Positions 37,705-61,807 of a stretch of 64,000 bases of DNA are shown one piece after another. Position numbers and translations under genes: made by a program. Source of the stretch: Syntrophobacterales bacterium (GTDB taxonomy: Bacteria; Desulfobacterota; Desulfobaccia; Desulfobaccales; 0-14-0-80-60-11); NCBI GenBank assembly GCA_037388025.1, contig JARRKO010000034.1, positions 32,336 to 96,335 on the forward strand. The letters are read 5' to 3'. Numbering within the stretch: the first letter of the stretch is position 1; each line of letters begins with the position of its first letter. The notes below the pieces were generated by a model. That model ran no database searches. It had not been told where the DNA came from and saw nothing but the letters and a program-made list of their open reading frames with translations.

Positions 37705-37908
37705 TATCTTGCCAAACCCGACAGTTATCATCGGACCTCGAAAAATTGCAGTTATGGTTTGATTATCAAAACAGGGGGGTGGTGCCCCAAATATTGGCTA
37801 TCCGGACCTTTTCAGGCTGGTGCCCTTAATGATAAGCTCCATGTGTTGATATTTTCTGTTTATGGGAAGTTTTTGGCTGCGTGATAAGTTTCTAAGAAGA
37901 GCAGTTAT
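37705..37908 (+). repeat. Repeat family R, copy R2 (204 bp)
   Basis: Starts TATCTTGCCAAACCCGACAGTTATCATCGGAC and ends GGGAAGTTTTTGGCTGCGTGATAAGTTTCTAAGAAGAGCAGTTAT. The central part diverges from the other copies. Confidence 0.8.
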
Positions 37909-37990
37909 CGCGTACCCGGAATTTCTTCCGTGGCAAACAAAAGAGGCAGGGCCAGTTGACCCTGCCTCTTTTGTTTTTCAGGTCAAAAGC

Positions 37991-40229
37991 TTATCCGCTT
38001 CGTTTTCTCCGCCAGCCCAGGAGTCCCAGGCCCAAAAGTCCCGAGCCCAGGAGGAACACGGAAGGGGGCACCGGGGTGGGGTCAGGTTTGAGCTGGCCCA
38101 GGCCCCCCGCAAAGTCGTAGGTCTTGCCCAAAAGGTAAGCGTTGATCAGCAAGTCAGGATCGTAATAGATATTTATCTCCTCATCGTCGTCATTGAAGAT
38201 GTTATACACCATCTTGGTGAACCAGTTCACCTTGGCGCCGATCAAGCCCCCCACATACTGAGCCGTGCCCTCGTTACTGTCGTTGCCATCAAAGAGGTGC
38301 ACGGTTTGTCCGAGGATAATCAGGGTGCCCCATTCAAAGCCGTTGGTGCCCGAGGGGCCTTTGTCCTCCCCGGGGATATAAAAGTTGTGACTCTTGTCAG
38401 CCCCCGTGACGAATTTCAGGGTAGCCGCGGCGGTGTCCCAGGCGGAGGCATTAATGCTCATATTGTTGAAATCATTTTTGATTTTGAACACATCCTGGGA
38501 GTGCCCCACCAGGTATCCTGTTTGGATAACGGGGTCCGGGACTGTTAGGTCGGTGAAGGTCTGGGTGGCATGATCGCTGATATAGGCGCCCTTGTTGGTG
38601 AAGGTGCCGTTCCAGGTGACGATGGCCTTGGTGGTGTTGACGGTGCCGTTTGACGGTGCCGTAATTCTCCACGTCGCCGGTCACCGTGGTGATGGTGTTC
38701 ATGACGTTGAAGGTGTCATTGGCGTCTATATCGATGGTTTTGGCGGACAGGATGCCGCCATTGAGGTTGTAAGTGCCAGTCCCGCCGAGCGGCGAGAGGG
38801 TCAGGGAGTTGGTGACTATATTGGCGCCGCCATTCTGGTTAAAGACGCCGGTGCCCACTGGCCCGATCATCTCGTCGTTAGCCTTGAGGGTCCCGCGGTG
38901 GAGATTGTAGGTGCCGCTGCTGCCAAATTGAGCCGCCAGGGTGAGGATACCGGCCACCGTGTGGGTGCCGCCGGTTTGGTTGAAGACGCCGGTGCCGTTA
39001 TAGCCGATAAACTCGTCCCCACTAACCGAGAGGCTGCCGTCCTTTGACAAGTTATAGGTGCCGCTGCCGGTGGCCTCATTGCCCAGGGTGAGGTCAAGGC
39101 CTACCGTATGGGTGCCGCCGCTCTGATTGAAGGTGCCGCTGCCGGAGTTGCCGATATATTCATTACCGGCCACCGAAAGACTGCCGCCCTTCAGGTTGTA
39201 GGTGCCGCTGCCGGTGGGTCTATAAAAATAGCCCAGGAAAAGATTTTTGGTGCTAACCGTATGAGTGCCGCCGCTCTGGTTGAAGATGCCGCTGCCGAAG
39301 CTGCCGATATATTCATTAAAGTCAGTAACCACTAAATTGCCGGACACTAGATTGTAGGTGCCGAGGGCATCTCGAACACTTCCAAGTTCGAGACCTTTTA
39401 CGGTGTTGCTCCCTCCGGTCTGGTTGAAGGTACCGGTGCCGATACTTTCGCCCTCAGCCTGGAGGGAGCCGCCTTTCAGATTATAGGTACCGATGCCGCC
39501 AAAATCATATCCCACGTAGAGAAGACCTGAGGCCGTATGGGTACCGCCGAATTGGTTGAAGGTGCCGGTGCCGGAGTAGCCGATATATTCATTACCGGCC
39601 AGCGGACCGGCCACCGAAAGGCTGCCGCCACTCAGGTTATAGGTGCTGTTAATACCACCAAGAAAAAGGAATTGGGTTATCGTATTGGTGCCGCCGCTCT
39701 GATTGAAGGTGCCGGCGCCCTGGCTACCTATAATTTCATTGGAGGCCAAGAGGCTGCCGCTGCCGCTGAGATTGTAGGTGCCTTTACCGGTGGGGTTATA
39801 ACCGAGGATAAGTTGGCTACTTCTAGGGTTGGTATTTACCGTATTGCTGCCGCCGCTCTGGTCGTAGACCCCCTTGCCGTCCAGGCCGATAGTCTCATTA
39901 TCGGCGGTCAGGGCGTTGCCGGACTGTTGCAAGGTGATGTTGCCCCAGCCGGTGGCATCAACGGTAAGGGCGGACAACATCGGATTGGATGAGGTATTGT
40001 AAATGACAGTCTTAGGGAAGAAACCACTCTGGGTGACGAAGACGTCATCTCCGGCCCCCGGCTCCCCTGACGGGCTCCAGTTGCTGGCCGTAGTCCACAG
40101 ATTATTGAAGGGGGTGCCGACCCACTGTTTGGTGACGGCCAGGGCCGGCTGGGCCATAAGGACCAGTAGCAAGGCGGCGGTGGCAATGAGAGTCCATAAG
40201 CATCTGGTCTTGGTGCTATCCGGTTGCAT
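37991..40229 (-). pseudogene. Repeat-rich secreted PEP-CTERM protein, split by a 13-bp tandem duplication (frameshift)
   Basis: Signal peptide MQPDSTKTRCLWTLIATAALLLVLMAQPALA, with the ATG at 40229 and an AAGGAG Shine-Dalgarno. There are about eight G(T/S)G(T/V)FNQxGG(T/S)(N/H)T(V/I)...GTYNLxGGSL repeats. The C-terminal sorting signal is PVPPSVFLLGSGLLGLGLLGWRRKRSG. The reading frame switches at 38637-38662 between ORFs 38472-40286 and 37991-38509. Confidence 0.85.
38637..38662 (-). repeat. Perfect 13-bp tandem duplication (TTGACGGTGCCGT x2 on the + strand) causing the frameshift
   Basis: Bases 38637-38649 equal 38650-38662. Removing one unit joins ...TVTGDVENYGTV to NTTKAIVTWNGTFTNKGAYISDH... 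in one frame. Confidence 0.9.
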
Positions 40230-40439
40230 GAGCGGGTTCTCCTTTTCCCCATAGGACAGCTGCTGGCCTGAAATAAGAAACACCAATCCGCTAAAAAATA
40301 AAGCAATTTTTGTGCCTTTATTAACCTCTTGAAATTCTTAGAGTCGCCCAAAGGAATGGTTCGGAGGATGAAACATTGCGTTTCATTCTCTGAACTTTTT
40401 ACACCCTTATGAATAGGGTGCAAGTTTAGGTTGAGTCTA

Positions 40440-40643
40440 TATCTTGCCAGTCTTTGCAGTTATCGCCTCGCCCTGAAAAATTGCAGAGATGATCTACATA
40501 TCAGAACAAGGTGAGGCGGATCCGTGGCTAAGTTATGGGAACCCTTAAAGGGTAGGGCTTTGGATGATGGATTTGATGTTTCCATATTGGATGGATAAGT
40601 AGAATTTTCAGTGGCTTGATAAGTTGCTAAGAAGAGTAGCCAG
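40440..40643 (+). repeat. Repeat family R, copy R3 (204 bp)
   Basis: TATCTTGCCAGTCTTTGCAGTTATCGCC...ATATCAGAACAAGGTGAGGCGGATCCGTGG...GAATTTTCAGTGGCTTGATAAGTTGCTAAGAAGAGTAGCCAG. Confidence 0.85.
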
Positions 40644-40733
40644 TGAAAAATAGAGAGCTGCCAGGGTTTGGCCAAAAGTGAACAGGGGATATCCTCTACA
40701 ATGGGCACGAGGACGTCTCCATACTCTGGCTAT

Positions 40734-41321
40734 TTATTTATTCTTCAGGAAGAAGATGGTGCGCCAGCGATGATCTCCCGCCAGGGCATGCAGTATGACT
40801 GCACCTACATGCACGGCCAAAAATACGGGAACCAGCCATTCTCCGAACTCGTGCAGTTCTTTTACCAGGTGCATGGCGCCATGGGCTTTCTGTCCTGGTA
40901 TCAGGAAGAGGAACATCGACAACCCGGTAACCGTCATCCAGGTGAAAACCGCCAGCCCAAAGGACTCCCAGAGGGCCGCCAATCCCTGGTGGGGCTCACG
41001 CTCAGGCAACTTCAGGGTGAGCAGGCTGCGAATATCTTCCAGGATCATCTTCACCCGTTCTGAATTATACGGTACCCAGTTGGCGAAGCGGGCCGGCTCA
41101 GGGCCACAGAAGCCGTGCAATAAGCGCGCTGCCACAAAAACGGCCGTACCCAAACCCAGCATCTTGTGGACCATGAAACCCAGGTGCAAGACCTTTTTGT
41201 AGTCCCCGGCCCAGTATCCGGTCAGCCAGGCCAGCACTCCAAAGATCATCAGACCGAAATGAAGGAGTATGGTAAAGCTATCCAACTCTTCTGACGGTTT
41301 CAAATCGGCAGGCTTATCCAT
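40734..41321 (-). CDS. Cytochrome b561 / Ni-Fe-hydrogenase b-type cytochrome-like membrane protein
   Basis: Four TM helices with conserved His residues (ILLHFGLMIFG, FMVHKMLG, AMHLVKELHEFGEW, FLAVHVGAVILHAL), the pattern of the PF01292-type family. Confidence 0.75.
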   Translation of the reverse strand: MDKPADLKPSEELDSFTILLHFGLMIFGVLAWLTGYWAGDYKKVLHLGFMVHKMLGLGTAVFVAARLLHGFCGPEPARFANWVPYNSERVKMILEDIRSLLTLKLPEREPHQGLAALWESFGLAVFTWMTVTGLSMFLFLIPGQKAHGAMHLVKELHEFGEWLVPVFLAVHVGAVILHALAGDHRWRTIFFLKNK

Positions 41322-41399
41322 ATGACATCACTCCCGTTTAAGCTTCTGGATGAGTCCCGGGCAGGCAAGAGCTGCACCGTGCCTGCCCGGTGCAGGCGC

Positions 41400-42200
41400 C
41401 TAAAAGGCCTGGTCCGGTTTCCACACCTTCCAGACGTTGCCCACCAGGTCCGGACCCGGTTTCAGCGTCGGCTTGCCCGGCTGCCAGCCTGAAGGCATGG
41501 CCTCCCCGGTCTTGCGGACATGCTGAAACGCCTTGACCTGGCGGATGAGTTCCGCCACATTACGGCCCACCGACGGAGTAAGTACCTCCATGGCTTGGAT
41601 AACCCCGTCGGGGTCGATAATAAAGCGGCCGCGCAGGTTGACTCCCGCCGCGTCATCGTACACGCCGTATACCGTGCCGATCTTGCCCCCGGCATCGGCC
41701 AGCATGGGATAGGGCACCCCGCCGGGCACCATCTTAGCCAACTCTTCAGTTTGCCAGATTTTGTGGGCAAAGCGGCTATCCGTGCTGACAGCCATGACTT
41801 CCACGCCCATTTTTTTAAGTTCCGGATACTTAACTGCAACTGCAGTCAATTCAGTGGGTCAGACAAAGGTGAAGTCGCCGGGATAAAAGCAGAGCACCGT
41901 CCATTTGCCTCGGTTGTCCGAAAGCTTCAGATTTTTAAAAGCACCATTGACAAAGGCGTTGGCTTCGAAATCCGGCGCGACCTTACCCACCCGGGCCCTA
42001 ACCGGAGCAGACTGGGACTGGCTGGCGCTGGCTGCAGATTGAGCCTTGGCCTGGGGCGCCAGCGGACCTTTGGCCGGGGCTACACACGACGAATCCACGT
42101 CCCTCTTCTTTCCTTTGTCCTTTTCCACGGCCGCCGCCGGCAGAGCTATGAACAGCAGGGCGGCGGCCATCATGAGCCAGATACAGAACCTTCTGAGCAC
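41400..42200 (-). CDS. Exported peroxiredoxin (AhpC/Prx1 type) with selenocysteine (UGA at 41859-41861) at the peroxidatic position
   Basis: ORFs 41859-42233 and 41400-41849 are in the same frame, separated only by TGA. The joined sequence reads [17 protein letters not shown], where the consensus is FYPxDFTFVCPTE. A SECIS-like hairpin lies 9 nt downstream. The probable start is the GTG at 42200 after GAGGAGGG, giving the signal peptide [23 protein letters not shown]. Confidence 0.85.
41830..41849 (-). promoter_or_regulatory. SECIS-like hairpin downstream of the in-frame UGA
   Basis: The minus-strand RNA UUGACUGCA-GU-UGCAGUUAA forms a 9-bp stem (one G-U pair) with G and U at the apex. The stem starts 10 nt after the UGA, so the apical loop is about 19-20 nt from the UGA. 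Confidence 0.65.
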
Positions 42201-42320
42201 AACTTTTCCCTCCTCGAATCTCAATGATAGCACGAAAATCTTTCCTGAATGGATTTTCCGCTATTAAGGCCAGCAATAAACGATAATCTAACCTTAGGGG
42301 GGTTAGGAAAACGGGTTGTT

Positions 42321-42350
42321 AAAGAATAAAGGCCAGGAGATATCCTGGCC
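42321..42350 (-). terminator. Rho-independent terminator of the small secreted protein gene 42413-42700
   Basis: GGCCAGGA (42331-42338) pairs with TCCTGGCC (42343-42350). On the minus strand it is followed by UUUAUUCUUU. Confidence 0.7.
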
Positions 42351-42412
42351 TTGTTAGTTAGCCATGCCTGGCTATTGCACGCTGTTGAGTTTGCTAAACT
42401 GAAGGACAAAGG

Positions 42413-42700: not shown

Positions 42701-42842
42701 AAGTTGACTCCTTTTGGTGAAAGTTTTGAGCTGAATTTTTCTTGGATAAAATCATAGGAAAAAGGAGTCGGTTCGGAAATCAGAGGAAGCCTCTTGTAAA
42801 AAGTGGAATTTGAGAGACTCAATATCATGGTGAGTTGGTGAT

Positions 42843-44949: not shown

Positions 44950-44998
44950 AAGTGTCGAATTTCCTGAAAAGTGGTTTGTTTAATCGTTGCTATTTGGC

Positions 44999-45859: not shown

Positions 45860-46040
45860 AATTTATCAGGCTCCTGTATTATCAATCTATTTTCGCCGCA
45901 TGCTGAATTATCCCATCGAGTTAGTCTACGTTATCCCCTAGACTATTTGCCACTGATGGTTAATTTCTCATGATAGTTGGAGATGGGCAATATTATTCCG
46001 TCCATCGAAAGTGAAAGCGAGGGCTTGCTGCGCCCCGTCC

Positions 46041-46232
46041 CACTTGGCAGTTTAGTTATCTTCAGGCAATAAATACTATAACAAATTTTTTCAGCTAGTA
46101 TAAAGTCTCTATCCCCGTGCTACAGCTGGTTTGTCATGAAAATAAGTTATTAAATTTCCTGATGAATCTTCCATGTGCTCTGAATATGGAGGTTTTTTGG
46201 CTGCTTGATAAGTTACTAGTGAGGGCAGCGAA
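46041..46232 (+). repeat. Repeat family R, copy R4 (about 192 bp, diverged)
   Basis: The 5' end is CACTTGGCAGTTTAGTTATCTTCAGG. The 3' end is CCATGTGCTCTGAATATGGAGGTTTTTTGGCTGCTTGATAAGTTACTAGTGAGGGCAGCGAA, which aligns with the R2 3' module. Confidence 0.65.
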
Positions 46233-49448: not shown

Positions 49449-50744
49449 ATGCCCATTGCCAAACAGCGCGTTCCGTCCGGAGTAAACCGCCTGGACCTGC
49501 TTCTCGGGGGCCTTTATATCGGAGACAACGTCGTCTGGCACGACGATGCCGCCTCCCTCGCCCCCATCTTTTGTCATAACTTCATCAAGGCCTCGGAGCA
49601 TCAGGATAAACCGATCGTCTACATTTGCTTTGATCGCTCCCCGAAAAATCTGCTGGAAAAATTGGGATCCCTGGCCGACTACCCGGCCCTCACCCTGCTG
49701 GATTGCTTCACCAGCGGCAAAGGCAAAGAAGCCGGCACCTTTGTCAAGTTTTATGAGGAGGGTGAGCTTCCCTGCCGGGTCGTCAAGGTCCAAAAGCCCC
49801 AGGATGTTCGGGAGTTTGAGGACGTCCTGTACCAGACCCATGGCCAGTTGACCGGGGATGTGCGGTTGATATTCGAGAGTGTTACCGGCATGCAGGAACT
49901 CTGGGGAGGCGAAGAGCGTTTCCTCGATTTTTACGCCCATTCCTGTCCCCGCCTCTATGACCTCAACACCATTGCTTACTGGACCCTGGCCAAGCACGCC
50001 CATTCCCAGCGTTTCCGGGCTGCCATCAACCAGATCGCCCAGGTCGCCATTGAGCTTACCATCAAGCGGGGGACCACCTCCCTGACTATTTTGAAAGCGG
50101 AGCAGCGCAATCCCGAAGAATTTGACAAACCCCACGTCTACTGGACCAAAGATCAGAACGTGGTGTTCGAGGGGGAAAAGCGCACCTCCGGCAAGAACTA
50201 TTTGGGCCAGCGCCTCAAGGAATTTCGGCGCAAGCGGGGGATATCCCAGACTGAACTGGCCAGGTTGGTGGGGGTTACCGCCAGCACCATTTCCCAGATT
50301 GAGGGCGATATTATTTATCCTTCTCTGCCAGCCCTTCTCAAGATCGCGGAGGTCCTGGCCGTGGAGGTAACCTCTTTCTTTGAAGGCGGAGACGCAGGGC
50401 AACGGCGCGTAGTTTTCACTCCCGGGGACGCGATGGAGGTGAAACTGAAAGATTTGCCGGAAGGCGCCGCTTTAGCCAAGCTCCTTCACCCCGTGGACCT
50501 CAGTATGAAGGCCGAACCCTATCTCATCGATATTCCCCCGAAGCAGACCCTCCCCGGGCACTTCTTTTTCCATAAGGGGGAGGAGGTGGGGTATGTGCTG
50601 TCCGGTCGGCTTCAGGTGCGGGTGGGCCAGGCAGTTCACACCCTCAAGGCCGGCGACGTTGTTTATCTCACTTCAGAAATCCCCAGTGAATGGAAGAACC
50701 CCGGATCCACCCCCGCACGACTGTTCTGGGTCACCATCAAGTAA
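49449..50744 (+). CDS. Transcriptional regulator: degenerate KaiC/RecA-like domain, XRE-type HTH and a cupin domain
   Basis: The N-terminal RecA/KaiC-like fold (RVPSGVNRLDLLLGGL..., VRLIFESVTGM) has no Walker A; WHDDAASL occupies the place of GxxGxGKT. The HTH is LGQRLKEFRRKRGISQTELARLVGVTASTISQIE. The cupin is FHKGEEVGYVLSGRLQVRV...AGDVVYL. An AGGGGAG Shine-Dalgarno precedes the ATG at 49449. Confidence 0.8.
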   Translation: MPIAKQRVPSGVNRLDLLLGGLYIGDNVVWHDDAASLAPIFCHNFIKASEHQDKPIVYICFDRSPKNLLEKLGSLADYPALTLLDCFTSGKGKEAGTFVKFYEEGELPCRVVKVQKPQDVREFEDVLYQTHGQLTGDVRLIFESVTGMQELWGGEERFLDFYAHSCPRLYDLNTIAYWTLAKHAHSQRFRAAINQIAQVAIELTIKRGTTSLTILKAEQRNPEEFDKPHVYWTKDQNVVFEGEKRTSGKNYLGQRLKEFRRKRGISQTELARLVGVTASTISQIEGDIIYPSLPALLKIAEVLAVEVTSFFEGGDAGQRRVVFTPGDAMEVKLKDLPEGAALAKLLHPVDLSMKAEPYLIDIPPKQTLPGHFFFHKGEEVGYVLSGRLQVRVGQAVHTLKAGDVVYLTSEIPSEWKNPGSTPARLFWVTIK

Positions 50745-50838
50745 AGAAGACAGAGAATATTTTTTCCTTTGATGAGGGGCGCTTCCCTTTGGCACAGGTC
50801 CAAGAAGGAATCTCTTCGAGAAGAACTGAAATTCAAGA

Positions 50839-51042
50839 TAACTTGCCAAACCTCGCAGTTATCACCAGACATTCAAGAATAGCAGCTATAGTTTGAATAT
50901 CAGAACAAGGCGGGGCAGATCCGTGGATGGGTTTCGGGGACCCTTGGGAGATTAGGCCCTGGATGAGAGGCTCAATGTTTTGATATGGGATAGATATGTA
51001 GAATTTTCAAAGACTTGATAAGTTTCTGCTTAGAGCAGATAG
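50839..51042 (+). repeat. Repeat family R, copy R5 (204 bp)
   Basis: TAACTTGCCAAACCTCGCAGTTATCACCAGAC...AATAGCAGCTATAGTTTGAATATCAGAACAAGGCGGGGCAGATCCGTGGATGGG...GACTTGATAAGTTTCTGCTTAGAGCAGATAG. Its closest relative is the copy at 61604-61807. Confidence 0.9.
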
Positions 51043-51212
51043 TTTCAAAGTTCTTAACATATTGCCACTACATTTCTTGGAGCAAAACCAGGAATTGAGT
51101 TTCATAAAGTAGTGGCAGGCTTTCGTGGGTTTTTCGGAGTGCGATAGATATAGTCAACTGTATTCTTAGCCCAGAGCCGCTCATGCAGTTGCGCAAGGGG
51201 TCTAGGTACCAG

Positions 51213-51578
51213 TCAAGAATTATGGTTCAAACGACCATCTTTGAGACGGTAAACATAATCGAACCCTTCGATCATCCTGACATTGTGGGCACTCCCGATC
51301 AGACCAGTGGCGTTGGGGGCTATTTTGTCAATCTTCAAACCCCATAGAATGGAGGGCACAATGAAAATTCCACCGTATGCCGCGTATACCATGCCGAAAT
51401 GAGCCGGTTGCAGAGTGGGGATAATTCCCTAGATCACCAGCACCGCTCCCCAGAGCACTCCAAGCCAGGCACTTTTATCTTCTGGCAGCCAAAACCACAC
51501 CAGGTATCCACCGTCAATTTCACACAAACCAGCCAGAATGAAAAAGATCAGGGATGGGATGATCTGGATTAGTTTTAT
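51213..51578 (-). pseudogene. ynfA: Decayed YnfA/UPF0060-family membrane protein gene: ATA in place of the start, in-frame TAG, 3' end replaced by an ABC-ATPase gene tail
   Basis: A single frame reads [32 protein letters not shown]...[28 protein letters not shown]...LIGSAH. It then continues [23 protein letters not shown]. The TAG is at 51429-51431. Bases 51235-51292 are nearly identical to 53390-53448, the 3' end of the ATPase gene. Confidence 0.75.
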
Positions 51579-51603: not shown

Positions 51604-53241
51604 TTACTCAGCCAGCTCTTCAATGGTATATAAGGTAATAACACCCTGAATCCCTTTAAGTTGGGCTTCAAACTCTCTTTTGACCACCAAATCATGATGG
51701 AGATAATGATAAATAGATTCAGAGATTATTACTTCCCCGCCCTGCGCCTGCATCTGGATACGACTAGCCAGGTTGACCGCCGAGCCGATGATACCATATT
51801 TGGCTCGGTTTTCGGAGCCGATATTGCCGACCACCACCTCTCCGGCATGTAAGCCAACGCCCAGATTAAGGGGAGGAACAGCCATTTCGACATCGGAGAT
51901 GTTAACCTTGCTCATGGCCTGCTGCATTTCCAAAGAGCATCGCAGAGCTTGTCGCATGGTGTGGGGTAAAGGCGCATCCAGGGGATCGAAGAAGGCCAGG
52001 ATGGCATCCCCTAAGAAATCAACGATAATGCCATGATATCGCTGGATAACTTGGATCATTTCAGAAAAAAAGCGGTTCATCAATTGAATGGTCGCTTCCG
52101 GACTAAGACATTCCGCCAAGGGGGTGAACCCACGAATATCGGCGAAAAGAATAACTACCTCCCGTTTCTCCCCGCCAAGACGGGTTGCCTCCGGTCGCTG
52201 CAACAATTTCCTGGCTATTTCAGGGTCAACATAGCGACCAAACGTATCGGTGACAAAATCCCGCTCCTTTAATCCTGCCACCATGTCATTGAAGGTCCTG
52301 GTCAACTGCCCGAATTCATCCTGGGATCGCACCGGTAAGGGGTCCCCATAATTCCCTTGGGCTACCTGGGTGGACTTTTGGGATATTTTCTGGATCGACC
52401 TGATCATGGGCCTCACGCCTATTCGGATGAACAGCAGGATCACTGCGAGGCAAATAATACCGGCCAAGGGATAAACCAAACCAAAGTGCAGGGCCGGCAT
52501 GATAATCTGCTGGCCCGAGGCATGCAGCACGATGACCAAAGGGGCGGCAGGTAATCGATAAAAGCCGATCACTTGACCTTGGTCACCGATAATGCCGAAA
52601 GGTTTCTCTTTGATGCCTTTGCGGATGACCGATCTGATAAAATCTCGATTATCCGCCGGAAGTGGTCGGCCTTCCTTCTCGGTGGCTACATGGGCCAGTC
52701 TGTTTCCCTGGTCATCCAACAGGCAAGCACCATTCGCTTGCAACCAGCTCGAAACAAGCAAATCTTGCATGAGAGAGGAGAATTTTATCTGAACCTCAAT
52801 CCGACCCAAAGGATGTCCGGCATCATCAAGGAGGTTAGACCTGAGACCTAAAGTATCCCCTTGTTCAGGGTAAAAATATTCAGGAGGAGATGCTTTTACT
52901 ATCTTTGTCCAGCCTTTTTCTGATCCCTGCCAGGTTAACCGGACCAAGCTAACACCCTCTTGGTTCTGTAATTGCTTAAGTATCCATCCCTGTATTTCCT
53001 TCGCAGCGGGTTCCTGCCCGGCTCGGCCAAATGACTCAATCAAGTTAACCGAATTGTTCAACCTGGCTTCCAACCGCTGGGAAGCTCGCGCCATTTGAAG
53101 AACGGCGATCTCTTGCCACCGGCTGGACAGGCCTTCACGGATATAAAAGAACCCTGCTACACCGATGCTGCTCAAAATGACCACTATCGGCAGGATTACA
53201 AAAACGATTAGCTTTTGCTGTAGACTCTTCATCCCGATCAT
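51604..53241 (-). CDS. Membrane adenylate/guanylate cyclase (periplasmic sensor, HAMP, class III cyclase domain)
   Basis: Two TM helices around a periplasmic domain of about 230 aa. The HAMP region is followed by the cyclase core (VVILFADIRGFTPLAE..., GDAILAFF, VGLHAGEVVVGNIGS, YGIIGSAVNLASR). Confidence 0.9.
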   Translation of the reverse strand: MIGMKSLQQKLIVFVILPIVVILSSIGVAGFFYIREGLSSRWQEIAVLQMARASQRLEARLNNSVNLIESFGRAGQEPAAKEIQGWILKQLQNQEGVSLVRLTWQGSEKGWTKIVKASPPEYFYPEQGDTLGLRSNLLDDAGHPLGRIEVQIKFSSLMQDLLVSSWLQANGACLLDDQGNRLAHVATEKEGRPLPADNRDFIRSVIRKGIKEKPFGIIGDQGQVIGFYRLPAAPLVIVLHASGQQIIMPALHFGLVYPLAGIICLAVILLFIRIGVRPMIRSIQKISQKSTQVAQGNYGDPLPVRSQDEFGQLTRTFNDMVAGLKERDFVTDTFGRYVDPEIARKLLQRPEATRLGGEKREVVILFADIRGFTPLAECLSPEATIQLMNRFFSEMIQVIQRYHGIIVDFLGDAILAFFDPLDAPLPHTMRQALRCSLEMQQAMSKVNISDVEMAVPPLNLGVGLHAGEVVVGNIGSENRAKYGIIGSAVNLASRIQMQAQGGEVIISESIYHYLHHDLVVKREFEAQLKGIQGVITLYTIEELAE

Positions 53242-53367
53242 GGCAATAAGTGGGTATGTGGCTCCCGAGGCAGTCGGCTACGGCTTAATTATGGGGTATC
53301 ACTTTAAAAGTGTCAGGCATCAGAGTGAACTTCAGAGGCCGGGGGCTAAAGTTTCTCTTTTAGTCAG

Positions 53368-54057
53368 TTAATGATTGTTGCTAAGCCGGCCATCTTTGAG
53401 ATGGTAAACATAATCGAACCCTTCGATCATCCTGACATCATGGGTCACCACGATAACCGCGGATTGATTCTCCTTGGCGATTCGCTTCAATAACTCCATA
53501 ACCTTCTTGCCCCTGGTGGTATCCAGAGAAGCCGTAGGTTCATCGGCCAAGATGAGCCTGGGGTTGTTGGCCAGGGCCCGGGCTATGGCTACCCGCTGCT
53601 GTTCGCCGCCGGAGAGAAGGGCAGGGAGGTAATCCGCCCGATCAGCTATCTCCATAATATCCAAGAGTTCCATAACCCGGTTATGGGCAGCCTCGCCCTT
53701 GATGTCCACCAGGCTCAGGGGGAACAGGACGTTTTGTCGGGCCGTCAGAAAAGGAATGAGATTGTGGGCCTGGAAGACAAAACCCATCTTTTCCCGGCGA
53801 ACACGGCGAATGTCCACCCCGCCGGACCAGCCGTTTTTCTGAAAAATCGTCTGCCCATCAAAGAGGATTTTCCCCTGGGTAGGTTCAAGAATCAGGCTGG
53901 TGCAGAGCAGCATGGTGGTCTTGCCCGAGCCGCTGGGTCCCAAAAGGGCCACCAGATCCCCGGGGGACACCGAAAGATTGATATCCTCCAGGGCCCGCAC
54001 CTCCAGGCGGCCAGACCCGAAAATCTTACTGAGGCCCTCGATCCCCAGGACTTCCAT
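53368..54057 (-). CDS. ABC transporter ATP-binding protein (MacB/LolD-type)
   Basis: Walker [10 protein letters not shown], signature [15 protein letters not shown], Walker B LILADEPT and H-loop VVTHD. Confidence 0.92.
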
Positions 54058-55259: not shown

Positions 55260-56413
55260 TCCCCCGACGCGGCCGACTTGACTTCCGGGCGAACCTTTGT
55301 ACCGGGCACGAGGCCTGCGGGTTTGACTACCACCAGTTCACCCGCTTTCAGGCCCTCGGTGACCGCGGTCCTGGCTCCATCCTGTAGTCCCAGGACAACT
55401 TTTTGGAAGCGCAGGCGGCCGTGGTCCGCCACCAGGACGCCTTTGCCGCCGTTTTTAGCGATGATGGCGGACAAGGGCACCACTGGGGCGGTCTGGCGCC
55501 CGGTATCAATCTCCACCTGTCCTTCCTCACCGATAACCAGGGGTTTGGGCAACTCGCTGAACTTCACATCTACTTCCAGCTCCCGGGTCACGGTGTCGCC
55601 TTCCTGGTTGAGCCGGGCCACCTGCCCCTGAAACTCGCGTCCGGAGCGCAGGGTTATCTTAGCCGGCTGGCCCGGCCGCAATTGGGCCACCAGAGCCTGG
55701 TCGATCCAGGTGGCCATCCAGATCTGGTCCGGGTCCACCATCTGAAAGATCGGGCTGCCGGGGATCAGGGTGGTGCCCACCTCCGCCTTGCGTACGGTGA
55801 TGAGGCCATCCATGGGAGCCACGATGCGGGTGTAATTGTGGAGCGCGGCCGCGGCCTTGGTTTCTGAGTCGGCCTGCTTCACCGCGGCTTTAAGAGCGGT
55901 CACCGTGGCCTGAAACGACGTGACCTCGCTTTCCGCCACCTTGAGTTGAGCCTTGGTGGTGTCAAAGGCCGCCTGAGAAATGTAGCCGGGCTTGAAGACC
56001 TCCAGGTCTCGCTGGTAGTTGCTTTTGGCCAAATCCAGGTTGGCCTGGGCCTTGCCCAGATCCGCCTGGGCCCGGGCCAGATCTTGCTGGGCGCGGTTTT
56101 TGGCGGCCTGGGCTGCAGCCTGCCGGGCTCTCAACTCCACCGCATCCAGTTTCGCCAGGAGCTGCCCTTTTTTCACCCAATCTCCCTGGTCGGCATAGAG
56201 GTCCTCCAGGATTCCGGTGATCTTGGGGCTAATGGTCACCGGCACTTTGGATTGCACCGTGCCCGGTCCCTGGACCAGGCCTCGTATCTCCATCTTTTTT
56301 ACTGCGATAACCGGCACCGGCGGACTGTACCAGAACAGTCGGTAACCCAACAGGGCGATGAGAATGGCCCCAAAAGTAATCCCGACCGCCTTTTTCCCTC
56401 CAGGTATGTTCAC
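55256..56413 (-). CDS. Efflux periplasmic adaptor (HlyD/MFP, MacA-like)
   Basis: TM anchor, lipoyl/barrel-sandwich motifs (GILEDLYADQGDWVKKGQLLAKLD), a long alpha-hairpin and a C-terminal beta-barrel. Confidence 0.9.
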   Translation of the reverse strand: MNIPGGKKAVGITFGAILIALLGYRLFWYSPPVPVIAVKKMEIRGLVQGPGTVQSKVPVTISPKITGILEDLYADQGDWVKKGQLLAKLDAVELRARQAAAQAAKNRAQQDLARAQADLGKAQANLDLAKSNYQRDLEVFKPGYISQAAFDTTKAQLKVAESEVTSFQATVTALKAAVKQADSETKAAAALHNYTRIVAPMDGLITVRKAEVGTTLIPGSPIFQMVDPDQIWMATWIDQALVAQLRPGQPAKITLRSGREFQGQVARLNQEGDTVTRELEVDVKFSELPKPLVIGEEGQVEIDTGRQTAPVVPLSAIIAKNGGKGVLVADHGRLRFQKVVLGLQDGARTAVTEGLKAGELVVVKPAGLVPGTKVRPEVKSAASGD

Positions 56414-57759
56414 TTGTCTTGATCTCCCCTGGTTTTTTGCTGAACCGGCTCGTAAGGGCCGGAGCCGGTGATTTGTTGGACACGGGCCTTGCCGATTTCA
56501 TAGGCCACGGCATACCCGATCAACTGGAAGCGCGACGCGGTCAGGTCCACCTGGGATTGGAGCACGTCCAGGCCGATGGCTTTCCCCACCCGGTACAAGG
56601 CTTGGGCGCTGGCAAAGGCCTCTTCATTGGTGGCCACGGTCTGCCGGGTGGAAGTCACGCCGTGGCGGGCATCTTCCTGGTCCTTCCAGGCGGCGGTCAG
56701 GTCCGCCTTGAGGCTGTTGAGGCGGTCCCGTTTTTTCTCCACTAGTTGCAGGTTCTGGGAGGCAGCCTTGGCCACCTGGGCCTTGGTCAGACCCCCCTCG
56801 AAGAAGGGAAACTCCAGAAAAACTCCGTAGAGCCATTCCCCCTTGGTGCCCCCCACATCCCGGTGGCGCATGTCGCCGGAGCCCTGGAGGCTGACCTCGG
56901 GGAAATAACCACCGCGGGCGGCCTTGATCAAAGCCTGGCTTTGGGCCAACTCCAGGTCCAGCCTCTTGAGCTCCGGATTATTTTTTAAAGCCCCTTGCCA
57001 CAGGGAATCCACCTTTCCGGCGGCAGCAAACTCCTGGGGGAGACGTCCCCGGACCTCGATCTGCACCTGCTCCCTCAACCCGAGGGTGCGGGCCAGGATT
57101 TCCTTGGCCAGGCGCTCGGCATTACGGGCCTCGACGACCGCCTGTTCCGCTTCGGATACCTGGGATTGGGCCCGAAACGAATCCAGGTGGGTTACTTTTC
57201 CGGCTTTAAAAAAGGCGTTGGTTAATTTGGCGAATTCCTGCCGCTGGCCCAAGGCTTCCTGAGCCACCTGCAGATTTTCCTTGGCCTCGATCAAACGATA
57301 GAACGCTTCGGTTACCGAATAGGCCACCTCATCGGCGGTGCGCTGGACCTCCTGTCTTTGGGCCTTGGTGCCTTGCCTGGCGGCCCGGGTGTTATGGTAA
57401 TTCTTGAAGCCGCTGAAGATGATCTGCTTGCCGGTGACCCCGGTATAAGTTTCTTCCTGGAAGAGATTGGGGGTGGTCCCGCCAGGGACAAAACGATCGG
57501 AGGGTTGTCGGGTATAATAGGAGAGCAGGGTCAACCGGGGGAAGAACTTGGATCGGGCCGCCTGATAGTCCGCCACCAACTCCTGGACCTTTTCCCGGCT
57601 GGCGGCCAGGACCGGATTATGTTTTCGTGCCAGGTCCAGGCAGTCTTCCAGGGAAAGGGCTTGGTAATCAGGTGAGGATGCTTCGCCACGATATGACGGC
57701 CAGGCTGCCAGGAGGCAGGCAAAGGATAACGCCAGAAGAATCTTGGGTCGATGGCGCAT
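56410..57759 (-). CDS. TolC-family outer-membrane efflux protein
   Basis: Signal peptide and two TolC repeats (LSLEDCLDLARKHNPVLAA..., ALKNNPELKRLDLELAQSQA...). It is the first gene of the four-gene efflux operon. Confidence 0.9.
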   Translation of the reverse strand: MRHRPKILLALSFACLLAAWPSYRGEASSPDYQALSLEDCLDLARKHNPVLAASREKVQELVADYQAARSKFFPRLTLLSYYTRQPSDRFVPGGTTPNLFQEETYTGVTGKQIIFSGFKNYHNTRAARQGTKAQRQEVQRTADEVAYSVTEAFYRLIEAKENLQVAQEALGQRQEFAKLTNAFFKAGKVTHLDSFRAQSQVSEAEQAVVEARNAERLAKEILARTLGLREQVQIEVRGRLPQEFAAAGKVDSLWQGALKNNPELKRLDLELAQSQALIKAARGGYFPEVSLQGSGDMRHRDVGGTKGEWLYGVFLEFPFFEGGLTKAQVAKAASQNLQLVEKKRDRLNSLKADLTAAWKDQEDARHGVTSTRQTVATNEEAFASAQALYRVGKAIGLDVLQSQVDLTASRFQLIGYAVAYEIGKARVQQITGSGPYEPVQQKTRGDQDK

Positions 57760-57882
57760 TGGTTTGCTCCAGACAGATAAGGGAAGATCGACTCTTACCC
57801 CAAGTTCTGTCTAGAAAACCCTTGCCATAACAAAATCCGGCGCGCCGGACACGATTACGAAAATAATGAAGTTATTAGAAAA

Positions 57883-57990
57883 TAGCTTGCCAGCCCTGAC
57901 AGTTATTACTTTGCCATGAAAAATTCCAGGTGTGCTCTGAATATCAAATCTTGGGTAGGGTAGTCGAGAGGAGGTCTGCTGAATTTGTGG
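57883..57990 (+). repeat. Repeat family R, copy R6 (about 108 bp, 3'-truncated)
   Basis: TAGCTTGCCAGCCCTGACAGTTATTAC...GAAAAATTCCAGGTGTGCTCTGAATATCAAATCTTGG aligns with the first ~75 nt of R3. The TGATAAGTT 3' module is absent. Confidence 0.65.
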
Positions 57991-58003
57991 CGTATTCACC
58001 CAA

Positions 58004-58189
58004 TTACTTTTTATCATTGGGTAGCTCTACCGGCAAGTATAACCTACCCTCTCCGGTAAACGACCCGCCCTGGACGATATGATCATCCTTTTGGTTGGCC
58101 GGGGAGGAGGAGGGCACACCTGCACATGCAGATAAAAATCCCGCCAACGCAACGGCTAGAGTAAATTTCACTAAGATCGAATTCACCAA
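58004..58189 (-). CDS. Possible small lipoprotein (about 55-61 aa)
   Basis: It contains the lipoprotein-type signal KFTLAVALAGFLSAC. The start is ambiguous (TTG at 58189 or GTG at 58171) and no clear Shine-Dalgarno is present. Confidence 0.4.
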   Translation of the reverse strand: MVNSILVKFTLAVALAGFLSACAGVPSSSPANQKDDHIVQGGSFTGEGRLYLPVELPNDKK

Positions 58190-58310
58190 CCAACCCTCTT
58201 TAAGGAAGTGGGCCTAATATTAGGATCTAGCGTCTCCCCTTACCTGTTCGGTACCGTCCTTTCTTCTTCCTTAATTGCCTGTTTCAATGACCTACCTATC
58301 TTGGCTCCAA

Positions 58311-58841
58311 TCAATTAAAGTTAATAATTAGAAATTCATTTTCTGATATATTCCATTTTTCTTCTATTTCTTTGGCTGAGTATCCCATTGATATACCCCC
58401 TATTATTTTCCCATTTTGAAGAATAGGTGCAAAAAAACCATATAGTTTCCCCCCACGCATAAAACCTTCAAAAACAACGTTCATTTTGTTATCATAAGCT
58501 TCCTTTATATGATTATAAGAACTAAAATTCCAACGTGCTTTTCTTATAGGGGGATATATGCTACGGGAAATACCATTCTGATCCATTACCATTATTCTTT
58601 TAGGGACTAACTTACCTTCTTGTTTCATCTCCTCATAAAATGTTTGGAGTATTGGTCTTATATCCTTCCAATCCTTTTTTGATACAGGCTCGACTAAACT
58701 CTTAATAATCTTGTCCATCTCCTGGAGCATCTCCTTCTTTAAAGCTTGAGCCTCTTTACTTAATAAGGGTTTTTCTGTCTGGCATCCTCCCAAAAACAAG
58801 ACAACACATAAGAGCAAAAAAGCCCGAGGCTTTATGCGCAT
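58311..58841 (-). CDS. Lipoprotein with a Cache/PDC-like sensor fold
   Basis: MRIKPRAFLLLCVVLFLGGC lipobox at the internal ATG 58841 (the ORF opens at 58964). The C-terminal pattern VMDQNGISRSIYPP...YGFFAPILQNGKIIGGISMGY is Cache-like. The gene is AT-rich. Confidence 0.55.
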   Translation of the reverse strand: MRIKPRAFLLLCVVLFLGGCQTEKPLLSKEAQALKKEMLQEMDKIIKSLVEPVSKKDWKDIRPILQTFYEEMKQEGKLVPKRIMVMDQNGISRSIYPPIRKARWNFSSYNHIKEAYDNKMNVVFEGFMRGGKLYGFFAPILQNGKIIGGISMGYSAKEIEEKWNISENEFLIINFN

Positions 58842-59108
58842 AGCGACTCGAAAAAAGTAAAATAAATTCATTCTTATTTCTCCAAATCTTCCTTGGCCGA
58901 TAAAATATGCTTCCCCGAAAATCTTTTTGAATCTGAACTGCCTTTTTTCCTCCCGATTGGTCATGGGTAGCTGTCAATCACTTCGAATAAATTATAATAT
59001 TTTTTATTAAGCTGGCAAACGCACTCTATTCCTTTCTTGGGCCAGCGGGCCAGTGCCTGCCAGTAATGTTGTACGGAAGGAAGAAATATTAACTAAAGGA
59101 AGTGCTTA

Positions 59109-59262
59109 TAACTTGCCAAACCTCGCAGTTATCACTTCCCCTTGAAAATTGCAGAGATGATTTGAATATCAGAACAGAGATGGGTTGACCCAAGAATAGG
59201 CTATGAAGACACGCACTGGCTGGCGCCCTCCATGGTGAGGCTGGTGTTAATAGGGCAGTTAT
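59109..59262 (+). repeat. Repeat family R, copy R7 (about 154 bp, internal deletions)
   Basis: The 5' end is TAACTTGCCAAACCTCGCAGTTATCAC...AAAATTGCAGAGATGATTTGAATATCAGAACA. The 3' end is GTGTTAATAGGGCAGTTAT. Confidence 0.7.
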
Positions 59263-59369
59263 CACCACTTTCTAATAATGACCTGTCAGCCGAGATTGGC
59301 ATCTTGGTTCTGTCCTCGGATCATTTATTTAATCTCTTTACCTTGGGACATTCTCAGTCGACTGATCCC

Positions 59370-60203
59370 CTAATCCTTAAAGAAGGCCAACAGGTCGGCG
59401 TTAACCTGATCCTTGTGAGTCGAACAGAGGCCGTGGGGCGCGCCGGGATAGACTTTCAGTGTTGAGCCATTGATAAGCTTGGACGAGAGCAGGGCCGAGG
59501 AGCCGATGGGGACGATCTGGTCATCATCACCGTGGATGATCAGGGTGGGCACATCGAATTTCTTGAGATCCTCAGTTTGATCCGTCTCTGAAAACGCCTT
59601 AATACAAAAGTAAGAGGCAGGGAAACCAGCCATCATTCCCTGGAGCCAGAAGGACTGGCGCACCCCTTCAGAGACTTTTGCTCCCGGCCGATTGTAGCCA
59701 TAGAAAGCCATGGTGAGATCCTGGAAAAACTGCGAGCGGTCGGATAAGACACTGGCGCGGATCTGGTCGAAGACCTCCATCGGCAGGCCCCCTGGATTGG
59801 CGTCGGTCTTCAACATCAGCGGCGGCACCGCGCCAATAAGCACCACCTTGGCCACCCGCTTGGTGCCGTGGCGGGCGATGTAGCGGGCGACTTCGCCACC
59901 CCCCGTGGAGTGGCCTACATGAATGACGTCCTTCAGGTCCAGCGCTTCGACGAGATTGGCCAGGTCGTCGGCGTAGGTGTCCATATCGTTGCCACCCCAA
60001 GGCTGGCTCGAACGTCCATGTCCCCGTCGATCATGGGCGATGCAGCGGTAGCCGTGAGAAGCCAGAAAGAACATTTGGTCTTCCCAGGCGTCCGCGCTCA
60101 GCGGCCAGCCATGGCTGAAGACCACGGGTTGTCCGCTGCCCCAGTCCTTGTAGAAGATCTGGATGTTGCCAGAGTTCTCTTTTCCAACAGTAATGTAATT
60201 CAT
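59370..60203 (-). CDS. Alpha/beta-hydrolase, non-haem haloperoxidase/arylesterase family
   Basis: [25 protein letters not shown]..., the nucleophile elbow GHSTGGGE, and [14 protein letters not shown] and HGL for the catalytic Asp and His. The pattern is strongly family-typical. ATG at 60203. Confidence 0.9.
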
Positions 60204-60404
60204 GGTAAGCCTCACTTTCTTAGCATGGGTTCTCGATGGCCTAGAACCGCTATTGAGGATCAGGGTTCACTGGGCCAATAAGGAAAGGGGATTGGAGATG
60301 CCTATAAGGTAGGGACTAAGATTACTCTGTCAAGAGAATCTGTACGTGGCGGAAAGGCAAGGGAAGTCAGGTACTCTTGAGAAATTTAGTGCGGAAATAG
60401 CTGC

Positions 60405-60568
60405 TATCTTGCCAAACCCCGCAGTTATCACCAGACGCAGAATAATTGCAGAGATGATTTGAATATCAGAACTGGGTGGGGAATGATGTAGGAGCCTGCG
60501 GTGAATACATCCGGCTGGGGTAAATCGGACCCCTTTTGCAGATAAGTGATAAACTTTAGGTGGAGGAT
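60405..60568 (+). repeat. Repeat family R, copy R8 (about 164 bp, internal deletions)
   Basis: The 5' end is TATCTTGCCAAACCCCGCAGTTATCACCAGAC...AATTGCAGAGATGATTTGAATATCAGAAC. The 3' end is AAGTGATAAACTTTAGGTGGAGGA. Confidence 0.7.
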
Positions 60569-60869
60569 TTGGCCCAGGTTGATAAAAAAGCCGGCGGCAA
60601 CCTTGTAGGTTCCTCATGGGACAACGACTGTCCTGATGATGAGGAGAGAGCTTTCGTTAATTTTTTTGATTAAATTGAGTCAGCCTCAGGGGAACTATTC
60701 TGGACTAATCGGGGCAAAACTAATAAGCCTCGCCAACCCTCCTCCCTGTGGCCCTGAGAGCCGGATCGGCCTGGTTAATGGGCCTTCAGGAAGGAGCAGG
60801 GGGAGGCGGGGCCCCCCAGCCCCTTCCTTTTTCAGTAATTGATTACTTGGTTAATCAGGTAGTTTGGTC

Positions 60870-61073
60870 TCATTCATGATCATGGCACAGTAAGATGTCC
60901 AATCCCTCCACCACACTTCTGCTATTTCCCCTCTTCCAAATGCCCCCCCTGGAGGCGTCATCGATCATTGGGTCGACGCCGCCTCCCGGGAGGCGATACA
61001 TTGTGGTCATTTCCTTTACTGCGGCCCGATAAATGGCTTTCTTGGTCAGGCGGAGCTCTATAACCTTTCCCAT
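60870..61073 (-). CDS. Hypothetical small protein (67 aa), possibly co-transcribed with 61119-61403
   Basis: ATG ORF 46 nt downstream of the 94-aa gene on the same strand. No motif recognised. Confidence 0.4.
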   Translation of the reverse strand: MGKVIELRLTKKAIYRAAVKEMTTMYRLPGGGVDPMIDDASRGGIWKRGNSRSVVEGLDILLCHDHE

Positions 61074-61118
61074 GGCTAGGCCCCTCCAGCTGACCTTGTA
61101 TTGAATCCAGGGAATATC

Positions 61119-61403
61119 TCAGTGGAGGACATCCCAATTCAGGTTCAAGGTGTTGTCGTAAAGGGTGTATTTGTACCCCATCATTTTTCCGACTCCGGGA
61201 ACCATTCCCTCTTCCACTTTCCAGTATCGCAGGTAAACAGACGGGACCATGCGGGGTTCATCAGTTAGAGGATCAGGGTCGATATTGTGCCAGACTTCTT
61301 TTTTCTCCATAACCCGCCAAAGGGTGCCATACTTTTTGCTGCGCACCGTCTGCCCCACACTGGGCAGCCCTTTTTCCCGGATAATTTGCTCATACTCTTG
61401 CAT
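61119..61403 (-). CDS. Small conserved hypothetical protein (94 aa), paralogue of 351-635
   Basis: AAGGAGGAG Shine-Dalgarno before the ATG. Same length as the ORF at 351-635 and about half identical to it. Confidence 0.7.
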   Translation of the reverse strand: MQEYEQIIREKGLPSVGQTVRSKKYGTLWRVMEKKEVWHNIDPDPLTDEPRMVPSVYLRYWKVEEGMVPGVGKMMGYKYTLYDNTLNLNWDVLH

Positions 61404-61433
61404 GGCTGTTCTCCTCCTTGAATGAGTTGGGCA

Positions 61434-61470
61434 GAAAAAAATGACTTCTGCCCGTATGGACAGAAGTCAT
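61434..61470 (-). terminator. Strong intrinsic-terminator-like hairpin about 30 nt upstream of the 61403 start (leader attenuator or end of an upstream transcript)
   Basis: The minus-strand RNA is AUGACUUCUGUCC-AUAC-GGGCAGAAGUCAU followed by U7. The 3' half can alternatively pair with the downstream UUCUGCCC (61429-61436 pairs with 61446-61453). Confidence 0.6.
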
Positions 61471-61603
61471 CGGCCCCACCTGAGCAAGGGGGACGGTTTT
61501 GGCGGACTTCATCGCCTTTTATAATCAAAGGTTAGATATCTTCGACCCATATGTCAACCTTAATAATTTTAGTCTGGGGAAATCCTGACGGCCCGATAGC
61601 GGC

Positions 61604-61807
61604 TAACTTGCCAAACCCTGCAGTTATCACCAGACCCTCAAGAATAGCAGCTATAGTTTGAATATCAGAACAAGGCGGGGCAGATCCGTGGATGGGTTTC
61701 GGGGAACCTTGCGAGGGTAGGCCCTGGACGAGAGACTCAATGTTCCGATATGGTCTGGGTAGCTTGAATTTCCAGCGGCTTGATAAGTTTCTAATGAGAG
61801 CAGATAG
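61604..61807 (+). repeat. Repeat family R, copy R9 (204 bp)
   Basis: TAACTTGCCAAACCCTGCAGTTATCACCAGAC...GGCTTGATAAGTTTCTAATGAGAGCAGATAG. It is collinear with 50839-51042 over its full length. Confidence 0.9.

Follow-up and report, generated by a model that had tools for sequence, protein, structure and literature searches.

The stretch analysed here, referred to as the window, comprises 64,000 nucleotides of a Syntrophobacterales bacterium (GenBank assembly GCA_037388025.1, contig JARRKO010000034.1, positions 32,336 to 96,335) and carries, between 37.7 and 61.8 kb, a succession of gene blocks separated by copies of a non-coding, modular repeat of 205-218 nt, which we call R. A repeat search revealed a family of approximately 204 nt whose four full copies, at 37705, 40440, 50839 and 61604, align gaplessly (65-87% identity), together with shorter repeat families holding just the 5' part or just the 3' part of R. 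An nhmmer search of the 64-kb window with a profile made of the four full copies gave the full catalogue and located eight copies between 37.7 and 61.8 kb, all on the + strand and four of them full (about 215 nt; E 1e-62 to 1e-70), while the − strand of the same interval yielded zero copies, as an earlier note on this DNA had stated. The head and tail patterns of R had 0 matches in shuffled sequence. A single orientation in 8/8 copies corresponds to a two-sided p of 0.008, or 0.004 if a ninth + copy at the right end of the window is included (9/9), and the uniform orientation is thus unlikely by chance. No description of an R-like element was found in the literature, and R is a previously undescribed element.

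From left to right, the + strand series begins with R2 (37697..37914), a full-length copy of a subfamily with a GGGG..CCCC hairpin after the head, which is followed on its 3' side by a bidirectional terminator hairpin at about 37945-37985. R3 (40433..40648, full length) has the PEP-CTERM gene on one side and the cytochrome b561 gene on the other, and R4 (46169..46232) consists of the tail module alone (profile positions 151-214; nhmmer E 5e-8). The full-length R5 (50833..51046) is 87% identical to R9. R6 (57876..57955), upstream of the start of the efflux operon, and R8 (60398..60481) are heads alone (profile positions 4-83 and 4-87, respectively), and R7 (59102..59271) retains head and middle at 59102-59243 (profile positions 4-146), with the tail mostly deleted and the terminal core GGGCAGTTATCACC at 59254-59268 directly after the middle. 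R9 (61596..61812) is again full length, lies between a fluoride-riboswitch unit and a TPR-cyclase gene, and shows GATAGCG directly 5' of its head and once more at its 3' end. The ninth + copy and tenth overall, R10, is a head only of about 81 nt, of which the first 3 nt (63998..64000) fall inside the window; the remainder was read from L014 (GCA_037388145.1, positions 4686-4766), which is 99.99% identical to the window, and places R10 between the TPR-cyclase gene and MFS/aroA/aroE/aroD genes. Breaks in partial copies fall mainly at profile positions 77-87 and 146-151.

Left of the array, R1 (25655..25803) is internally deleted (profile positions 6-57 and 128-207; nhmmer E 1e-6 and 3e-7), lies on the opposite, − strand and directly follows the terminator of a + strand phasin-like gene. 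Extension of the flanks revealed a further − strand piece of R about 0.2-0.3 kb left of the window, and no more R in the next 7.5 kb leftward or 4.7 kb rightward, where the right flank consists of aroA, aroE, aroD and an MFS transporter gene. The AT-rich island of SLATT, DUF4062 and nSTAND genes that precedes the array is itself edged by R-like sequence. At its left edge stands a lone 13-nt R 3' terminus, GAGAGCAGATAGC (29168..29180, +), which reproduces the R9 3' end exactly and for which chance predicts 0.03 matches, and at its right the 13 nt preceding the R2 head match GAGAGCAGATAGC at 9/13 positions. The earlier placement of this island between an R 3' fragment and R2 was thereby confirmed.

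The gene blocks had been described correctly before, and Pfam assigned to them cytochrome b561, a split peroxiredoxin, a response regulator, a histidine kinase and a substrate-binding protein, followed by CCG and GltS-like genes, an XRE-cupin regulator, a HAMP-cyclase and an ABC/FtsX/MFP/OEP efflux operon, and, towards the right, an alpha/beta hydrolase on its own and the TPR-cyclase; two lipobox open reading frames (ORFs) lie at 58004-58189 and 58311-58964. Counting from ORF coordinates between 37.5 and 64.5 kb, R is present in 9/16 intergenic gaps of at least 100 nt, including 8/8 gaps of at least 400 nt. All copies are placed between transcription units, none inside an operon, and every copy in the window runs antisense to its 3' neighbouring gene, the two inverted outliers included. 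GC content at third codon positions (GC3) ranges from 0.33 to 0.75 across the genes, a lipoprotein gene of 0.33 standing beside the hydrolase and OEP genes of 0.72, with 0.43 for the substrate-binding protein gene and 0.38 for the SLATT gene; R itself is more AT-rich than its surroundings (GC 0.40-0.50 vs 0.52). The solitary hydrolase (59370-60203, −; named non-heme chloroperoxidase by the sources) is 83-92% identical to proteins of distant phyla, and its unusually high conservation across phyla suggests a gene that has often been transferred. Proteins at this level of identity number thousands and include some from Acidobacteriota, Terriglobia and Gammaproteobacteria metagenome-assembled genomes (MAGs). 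The decay scars reported at block edges were likewise found, both as truncated R copies and as fragments of ynfA fused to a duplicated ABC 3' end; in the latter, an 80-nt duplicate of ABC ATPase 3'-end sequence (84% identity; 51210-51289 vs 53365-53444) is joined to frameshifted ynfA-like fragments (51213-51527), and this chimera just right of R5 is the scar of a local rearrangement.

At least four further loci (L029, L004 together with L005, L011, and L001), from several related genomes of the sulfate-reducer type, also have arrays of co-oriented R copies around blocks of 1-7 genes, and wherever a contig is long enough, additional copies of R lie nearby in the same orientation. L029, whose sample series is that of the window population, has four copies in 4.4 kb around the single-gene blocks SnoaL (−), ankyrin (+) and GT87 (−); L004+L005 has four copies in about 6.7 kb, L011 three copies in 2 kb, where the enclosed PEP-CTERM gene has the direction of R, the reverse of the arrangement in the window, and L001 two copies in 2 kb. 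As gene orientation relative to R varies between and within L011, L029 and L004 while the polarity of R is fixed, this polarity is no by-product of gene direction. R is the sole sequence common to the loci, the genes between its copies being unrelated. Within one array the copies share 55-75% identity and are as diverged as copies of different genomes; the closest relatives are often found in other genomes (R2 and L029d, 75%; R5 and L011c, 82%; L029b and L004b, 68%), and the identity of the head is the same within the genome of the window as between genomes (about 80%). The arrays are therefore not recent local duplications. An exact-pattern scan, using a pattern that recovers 7 window copies, gave matches in 2/185,579 species representatives (MAGs labelled Syntrophobacterales and Desulfobaccales) and in three metagenome contigs. 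The R family is rare and restricted to a lineage. None of the viral contig, plasmid and phage collections contained R. Some R copies are themselves interrupted by IS4-like, RAYT and IS110-like genes, which do not share its ends: in L001 (5780-6440), a REP-associated tyrosine transposase gene (RAYT; NF047646, E 2e-57) with its own unrelated GC-rich repetitive extragenic palindromes (REPs) splits an R head, in L002 (380-1579) an IS4-like DDE transposase gene cuts R short, and in L027 an ORF derived from R is joined to an IS110-like N-terminus, a fragment that abuts R.

R has a modular anatomy, with a unit of 27-32 nt (GATAAC-N15-GTTATC) in direct orientation at both ends and a variable middle. 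The head unit reads GATAAC-TTGCCAAACCnnGCA-GTTATC and the tail unit GATAAG-TTTCTAAGAAGAGCA-GTTATC, with CAGTTATC nearly invariant within the unit. The head, of about 85 nt, comprises two direct units approximately 30 nt apart, namely U1 (GATAAC-TTGCCAAACCnnGCA-GTTATCACC) and H2 (CTTGAAAAATT-GCA-GAGATGAT..TATCAGAAC). Variation is greatest in the middle, which spans about 65 nt (mean pairwise identity 0.65 vs 0.77 for the head) and lies between the arms of an inverted repeat, ATATCAGAACA / TGTTnnGATAT. At the end of the tail the unit occurs for a third time, again in direct orientation, as U3 (GATAAG-TTTCTAAGAAGAGCA-GTTATCGCC), which matches U1 at 17-18/26 positions. In R5, where these modules can be followed along the sequence, U1 occupies 50836-50867, the second head unit H2 50872-50906 and the tail unit U3 51015-51046, and the inverted-repeat arms at 50897-50907 and 50976-50986 enclose the variable middle. 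The two ends of R read CTTGCCAAACC..GCAGTTATC and GATAAGTTTC..GAGCAGTTATC; they are direct repeats, and complementarity between them is limited to hexamers. The 12 nt 5' of the head weakly resemble the 3' terminus AGAGCAGnTAnC, and the 5' flanks match AGAGCAG at 54/140 positions in the predicted register, compared with 25-44 at 23 other offsets. From the terminal unit copies and this likeness of the 5' flank to the 3' terminus we concluded that R is bounded by degenerate direct repeats. An exact target-site duplication was not found around the R copies, and a position-weight-matrix scan detected no solo U units in the window beyond the known copies. Similar terminator hairpins (AAAGAGGCAGGGCCA...CCCTGCC) stand on the tail side of R2 (37945-37985), R1 (25600-25640) and L004b (about 4905-4945 of L004), and at this hairpin R2 and the unrelated L004 genome have 19 nt identical; R may sometimes extend over its tail-side terminator hairpin.

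Does R act as RNA? Over R, Rfam gave no family at gathering threshold and none at E up to 10, the fluoride riboswitch being the sole match in the window that reached threshold. With RNA parameters, the nine copies folded no better than dinucleotide shuffles on both strands (mean z −0.2 and −0.4), with DNA parameters z ranged from −0.4 to −1.9, and consensus folds were weak (−5 to −14 kcal/mol) with most long-range pairs invariant. A stable hairpin, an attC-like fold and a structured RNA were rejected on the basis of these energy z-scores and weak consensus folds. A small or antisense + strand RNA, or a structured 3' untranslated region element, with an imperfect hairpin over the whole length as the functional form, would nevertheless draw on a nested scheme of 45 pairs derived from four window copies, which is satisfied in 87% of cells in nine copies vs 30-45% when the 3' partners are slid, with compensatory changes in 10 cells vs 4.4 in shuffles and an excess of G-T wobbles over A-C mismatches on the + strand (52 vs 9). 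The scheme was derived partly from the sequences on which it was tested, so that the paired percentage is inflated, and its fit is probably explained by sequence conservation together with its origin in the same family. Considering in addition the folding energy, a consensus fold of just −9 kcal/mol in which most long-range pairs never vary, the lack of an Rfam match and of a consistent promoter or terminator, we regard an RNA function as very unlikely.

A coding origin was examined as well, in which R would be a decayed gene fragment, for instance 3'-terminal sequence of a target gene that integrating islands had duplicated. It would be in keeping with a − strand frame conserved in many copies (...SDIQxIxAIxxGxVITAxFGK), with stops soon after GK in several copies and with the gapless 204-nt alignment of the four full copies; on the + strand, a mini-ORF, MPN[LP]AVIT.., also looked conserved. 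It was rejected on account of internal stops in most copies, no start codon and no codon periodicity. Variable sites are spread over the codon phases as 38, 26 and 41, and none of the six frames shows a synonymous excess. Searches of 5.8 billion proteins (word-indexed) and 1.84 billion representatives (exhaustive) revealed no real protein family for the R peptide; the only matches were short spurious ORFs over other R copies (7 clusters in 1.84 billion) and one artificial construct. This explanation is effectively refuted.

Read by eye, no sigma-70, sigma-54, sigma-E, sigma-28 or sigma-32 promoter and no IHF, DnaA, Fur, FNR or Rex box fits R consistently, and a promoter and terminator scan showed no enrichment over R. 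In many copies H2 contains a promoter-like TTGAAA-17-GAATAT motif by our own reading, which the consensus scan did not flag. CTTG..AAACC and TTATCA resemble the hix half-sites of the Hin system; there is no palindromic 26-bp site, and the resemblance was judged to be due to chance.

We tentatively propose a cassette-like accretion process with R as its recurring junction, which appears the most economical explanation because it accounts for dense arrays, constant polarity, unrelated and diverse blocks, diverged R copies, direct terminal repeats and an R terminus at the edge of the defence-like island. Arrival of each block with an R of its own would lead one to expect diverged copies with relatives in other genomes, which local duplication of R would not. 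A site-specific recombinase encoded elsewhere in the genome would recognise the R units, and circular DNA carrying one R and one or a few genes would recombine with a resident R; integration would leave the block inserted with R on both sides in the same polarity, and repeated rounds would build an R-block-R-block array. The head-only and tail-only copies and the lone 13-mer at 29168 could then represent decayed or hybrid junctions. A stronger version, in which R defines a new integron-analogous gene-cassette system in a Desulfobacterota lineage, with a recombinase gene remote from the array and with genes or small operons captured successively, each with its own R of about 215 nt, seems doubtful; here capture would take place at a short core in the dyad-symmetric 27-nt unit, and the site architecture would be unrelated to IntI/attC. 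Recombination at R, the location of the crossover and the existence of the enzyme are all what we infer from this organisation, and our confidence is kept modest because no enzyme, crossover point or mobility event was observed.

Several results weigh against accretion at R. No recombinase or transposase was found among the ORFs of the window or the genes of about 12 kb of added flank, and no tyrosine recombinase, serine recombinase or transposase stands beside the arrays in L029, L004/5 and L011; the two unknown array neighbours (333 aa and 345 aa) are mutually unrelated membrane or coiled-coil proteins and not recombinase-like. Population contigs of several samples are about 99.9% identical and collinear, so that no gain or loss of blocks is visible among them, and no second context was found for any block together with its R. 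Homologues of the hydrolase (89-92% identical) and of the TPR-cyclase (81%) stand in unrelated contexts without R and are not syntenic with the window. Within R, CAGTTA is present in 20/20 heads but only 5/11 tails, and nhmmer detected neither an overlap nor a common core between head-only and tail-only copies. Several of the blocks are unremarkable operons of more than one gene that possess regulators, a riboswitch and terminators of their own, and the equal conservation of the head across and within genomes fits a host function too. The cassette-like organisation suggested by the earlier note thus stands in part: it gains from co-oriented arrays elsewhere, from unrelated genes of mixed GC3 and from the divergence of R, its strongest support being that such arrays recur in other genomes, and it loses from the missing recombinase, the lack of block polymorphism and the dissimilarity to attC. 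The other suggestion made there, of mere accumulation of R in a plastic region, is a further possibility; R occurs outside the array too, and in the opposite orientation.

That suggestion leads to R as a selfish, non-autonomous repeat, mobilised in trans and landing in intergenic spacers, the blocks being what happens to lie between insertions in a spacer-rich, transfer-prone region. Such a repeat would prefer existing copies or adjacent sites, targeting its own terminus, or be strand-specific and replication-linked. It would explain why R alone is common to unrelated loci, why it is strictly intergenic and AT-richer than its surroundings, and why there are truncated and internally deleted copies and subfamilies that cross genomes. 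The weak repetition of the 3' terminus in the 5' flanks would resemble a duplicated specific target, inversion of the two copies to the left of 26 kb goes with that of the prevailing gene direction there, and other mobile DNA strikes R, as it would any dispensable sequence. The ends of R, however, are direct repeats without terminal inverted repeats, no autonomous partner was found, and the copies are old (55-87% identity) with no young burst, yet about 80% identical in the head across genomes. A replication-linked bias would need a switch of replichore within 25.8-37.7 kb; no dif-like site was found in the window, and GC skew over the 64 kb tracks the coding strand and is uninformative on replication polarity. 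Independent hopping also does not readily account for the filling of nearly all large spacers in several arrays when the adjoining 25 kb has only one copy. We therefore consider a selfish repeat a possibility, though a rather unlikely one.

The conservation of the head bears on a further explanation, namely that R is a host element acting in cis, selected and not mobile, in which U1, H2 and U3 would be binding sites for a DNA-binding protein that marks the boundaries of transcription units, as an insulator, a promoter or terminator helper, or a nucleoid anchor. The head motifs CTTGCCA, CAGTTATCA, AAT.GCAG and TATCA are equally conserved between and within genomes, the unit has dyad symmetry (GATAAC...GTTATC), and U1 and H2 are phased at about 30 nt. 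The placement between transcription units and never within operons, the antisense position of all window copies relative to the 3'-side gene, and the promoter-like motif in H2 would also be expected of such an element. The gene-orientation rule breaks, however, in L011, L029 and L004, R is, as far as visible, not spread over the genome but strongly clustered, and many copies are reduced to head or tail alone. R is furthermore very rare in public data (2/185,579 species representatives, 3 metagenome contigs and 7 clusters of spurious ORFs), and no candidate binding protein was identified. On balance, a host boundary element of this kind is in our view unlikely.

If R marks the junctions of accreted blocks, its arrays are nearest in their working to integron cassette arrays and clusters of attC sites lacking integron integrases (CALINs), or to the tandem accretion of integrase-less islands, and they lack defining features of both. 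Like integrons and CALINs, they place co-oriented non-coding sites between small, unrelated and compositionally diverse blocks; the sites are diverged within an array and have conserved ends and a variable centre, and CALIN arrays also stand without a neighbouring integrase. In contrast, attC sites measure 57-141 nt (R, 205-218 nt) and carry RYYYAAC/GTTRRRY boxes as inverted repeats, whereas by reading neither orientation of R carries these boxes and its ends are direct; one strand of attC folds into a stable imperfect hairpin and neither strand of R does. Integrons have IntI, attI and Pc at the end of the array, none of which is present in R arrays, and their cassettes are short and mostly promoterless; R blocks include single genes (hydrolase; SnoaL, Ank, GT87), and others hold as many as 7 genes with regulators, a riboswitch and promoters and terminators of their own. 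Tandem accretion and cis-mobilizable elements (CIMEs) show direct att-like repeats between successive islands, islands without their own integrase, and both full-size (attP-like) and partial (attL-/attR-like) junctions, all of which is also seen with R, as is a defence island bounded on both sides by R-derived sequence. Accretion of this kind uses a tRNA, a tmRNA or another conserved gene as its target, an identical core and an integrase, whereas in the R window Rfam found no tRNA or tmRNA and there is no conserved gene target, the junctions are 55-87% identical with no demonstrably identical core, and the array contains no integrase. Unlike tandemly accreted elements, R blocks can be as small as one gene of 0.8 kb.

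Among repeat families, REPs with their bacterial interspersed mosaic elements (BIMEs) and the enterobacterial repetitive intergenic consensus (ERIC) represent classes of interspersed mosaic or extragenic repeats in bacteria (PMC2817692, PMC3184786). R shares with these the extragenic position between transcription units, the mosaic build, the subfamilies and proposed protein-binding sites. REPs, however, are palindromes of 20-40 nt that are rich in GC and alternate in orientation, with hundreds of copies and a link to RAYT, whereas R is about 215 nt long, AT-rich, co-oriented, rare and present in local arrays, and the sole RAYT seen has its own REPs and sits in R. [quoted passage not shown] The pdif modules (XerC/D) of Acinetobacter plasmids and the integrative mobile elements exploiting Xer (IMEX) would be comparable under the accretion proposal in that modules are bounded by short sites and a housekeeping recombinase is encoded elsewhere. 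A pdif site, in contrast, has 28 bp (11-6-11) and alternates in orientation, whereas the hexamer arms of the R unit are 15 nt apart, all units are direct, and no dif-like sequence was found.

Apart from R, several genes of the window deserve mention. The fluoride riboswitch in the block between R8 and R9 (Rfam RF01734, 45.6 bits; 61454-61525, −) has a terminator hairpin and precedes two ORFs on the same strand (61119-61403 and 60870-61073; 94 and 67 aa) that have no Pfam or NCBIfam match and do not belong to the usual fluoride-response genes. The peroxiredoxin gene (AhpC-TSA; 41400-42233, −) is split by one in-frame stop into 41859-42233 and 41400-41849, and the gap in the profile match falls at the expected peroxidatic cysteine; judged from its sequence, it is a candidate selenocysteine peroxiredoxin. 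The cyclase gene next to R9 (61863-63755, −) encodes a 630-aa cyclase/TolB-like/TPR protein, a one-module form of a family of about 1020-1060 aa in which the TolB-like and TPR module is tandemly doubled, and the protein is 81% and 61% identical to the two modules of the family member P0125. Further to the left, 19144-25224 (+) encodes a 2026-aa sensor with about 12 PAS-type repeats at a period of about 370 nt. The PEP-CTERM gene (38472-40286, −) is composed of repeats of 66-75 nt, and its C-terminal part apparently occupies an ORF of its own (37991-38509), suggesting a frameshift. A tRNA-Pro(CGG) called by ARAGORN at 36204-36280 (+), inside the ORF of a 1710-aa nSTAND1 NTPase (32349-37481), is probably false; Rfam gave no tRNA there. 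The sister MAG L015 (GCA_037387945.1) lacks five stretches of 92-181 nt of the window (50183-50339, 53009-53189, 55691-55816, 60196-60354 and 63197-63288); they are mostly intragenic and split genes, with 60196-60354 situated between R8 and the start of the hydrolase, none falls at an R boundary, and they are probably assembly artefacts.

Should R instead mark boundaries or be selfish, it would serve as a marker of plastic regions in these MAGs and as a cause of assembly breaks, and its general interest would be modest. Among bacterial systems that stack unrelated genes into co-oriented arrays punctuated by sites, only integrons are, to our knowledge, well understood. If the R arrays were built by recombination, they would represent a second, independent solution beside integrons, with different sites and a remote enzyme, in environmental anaerobes and carrying defence, envelope and signalling genes. 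R would then open a searchable class of cassette platforms that are invisible to attC-based tools such as IntegronFinder.

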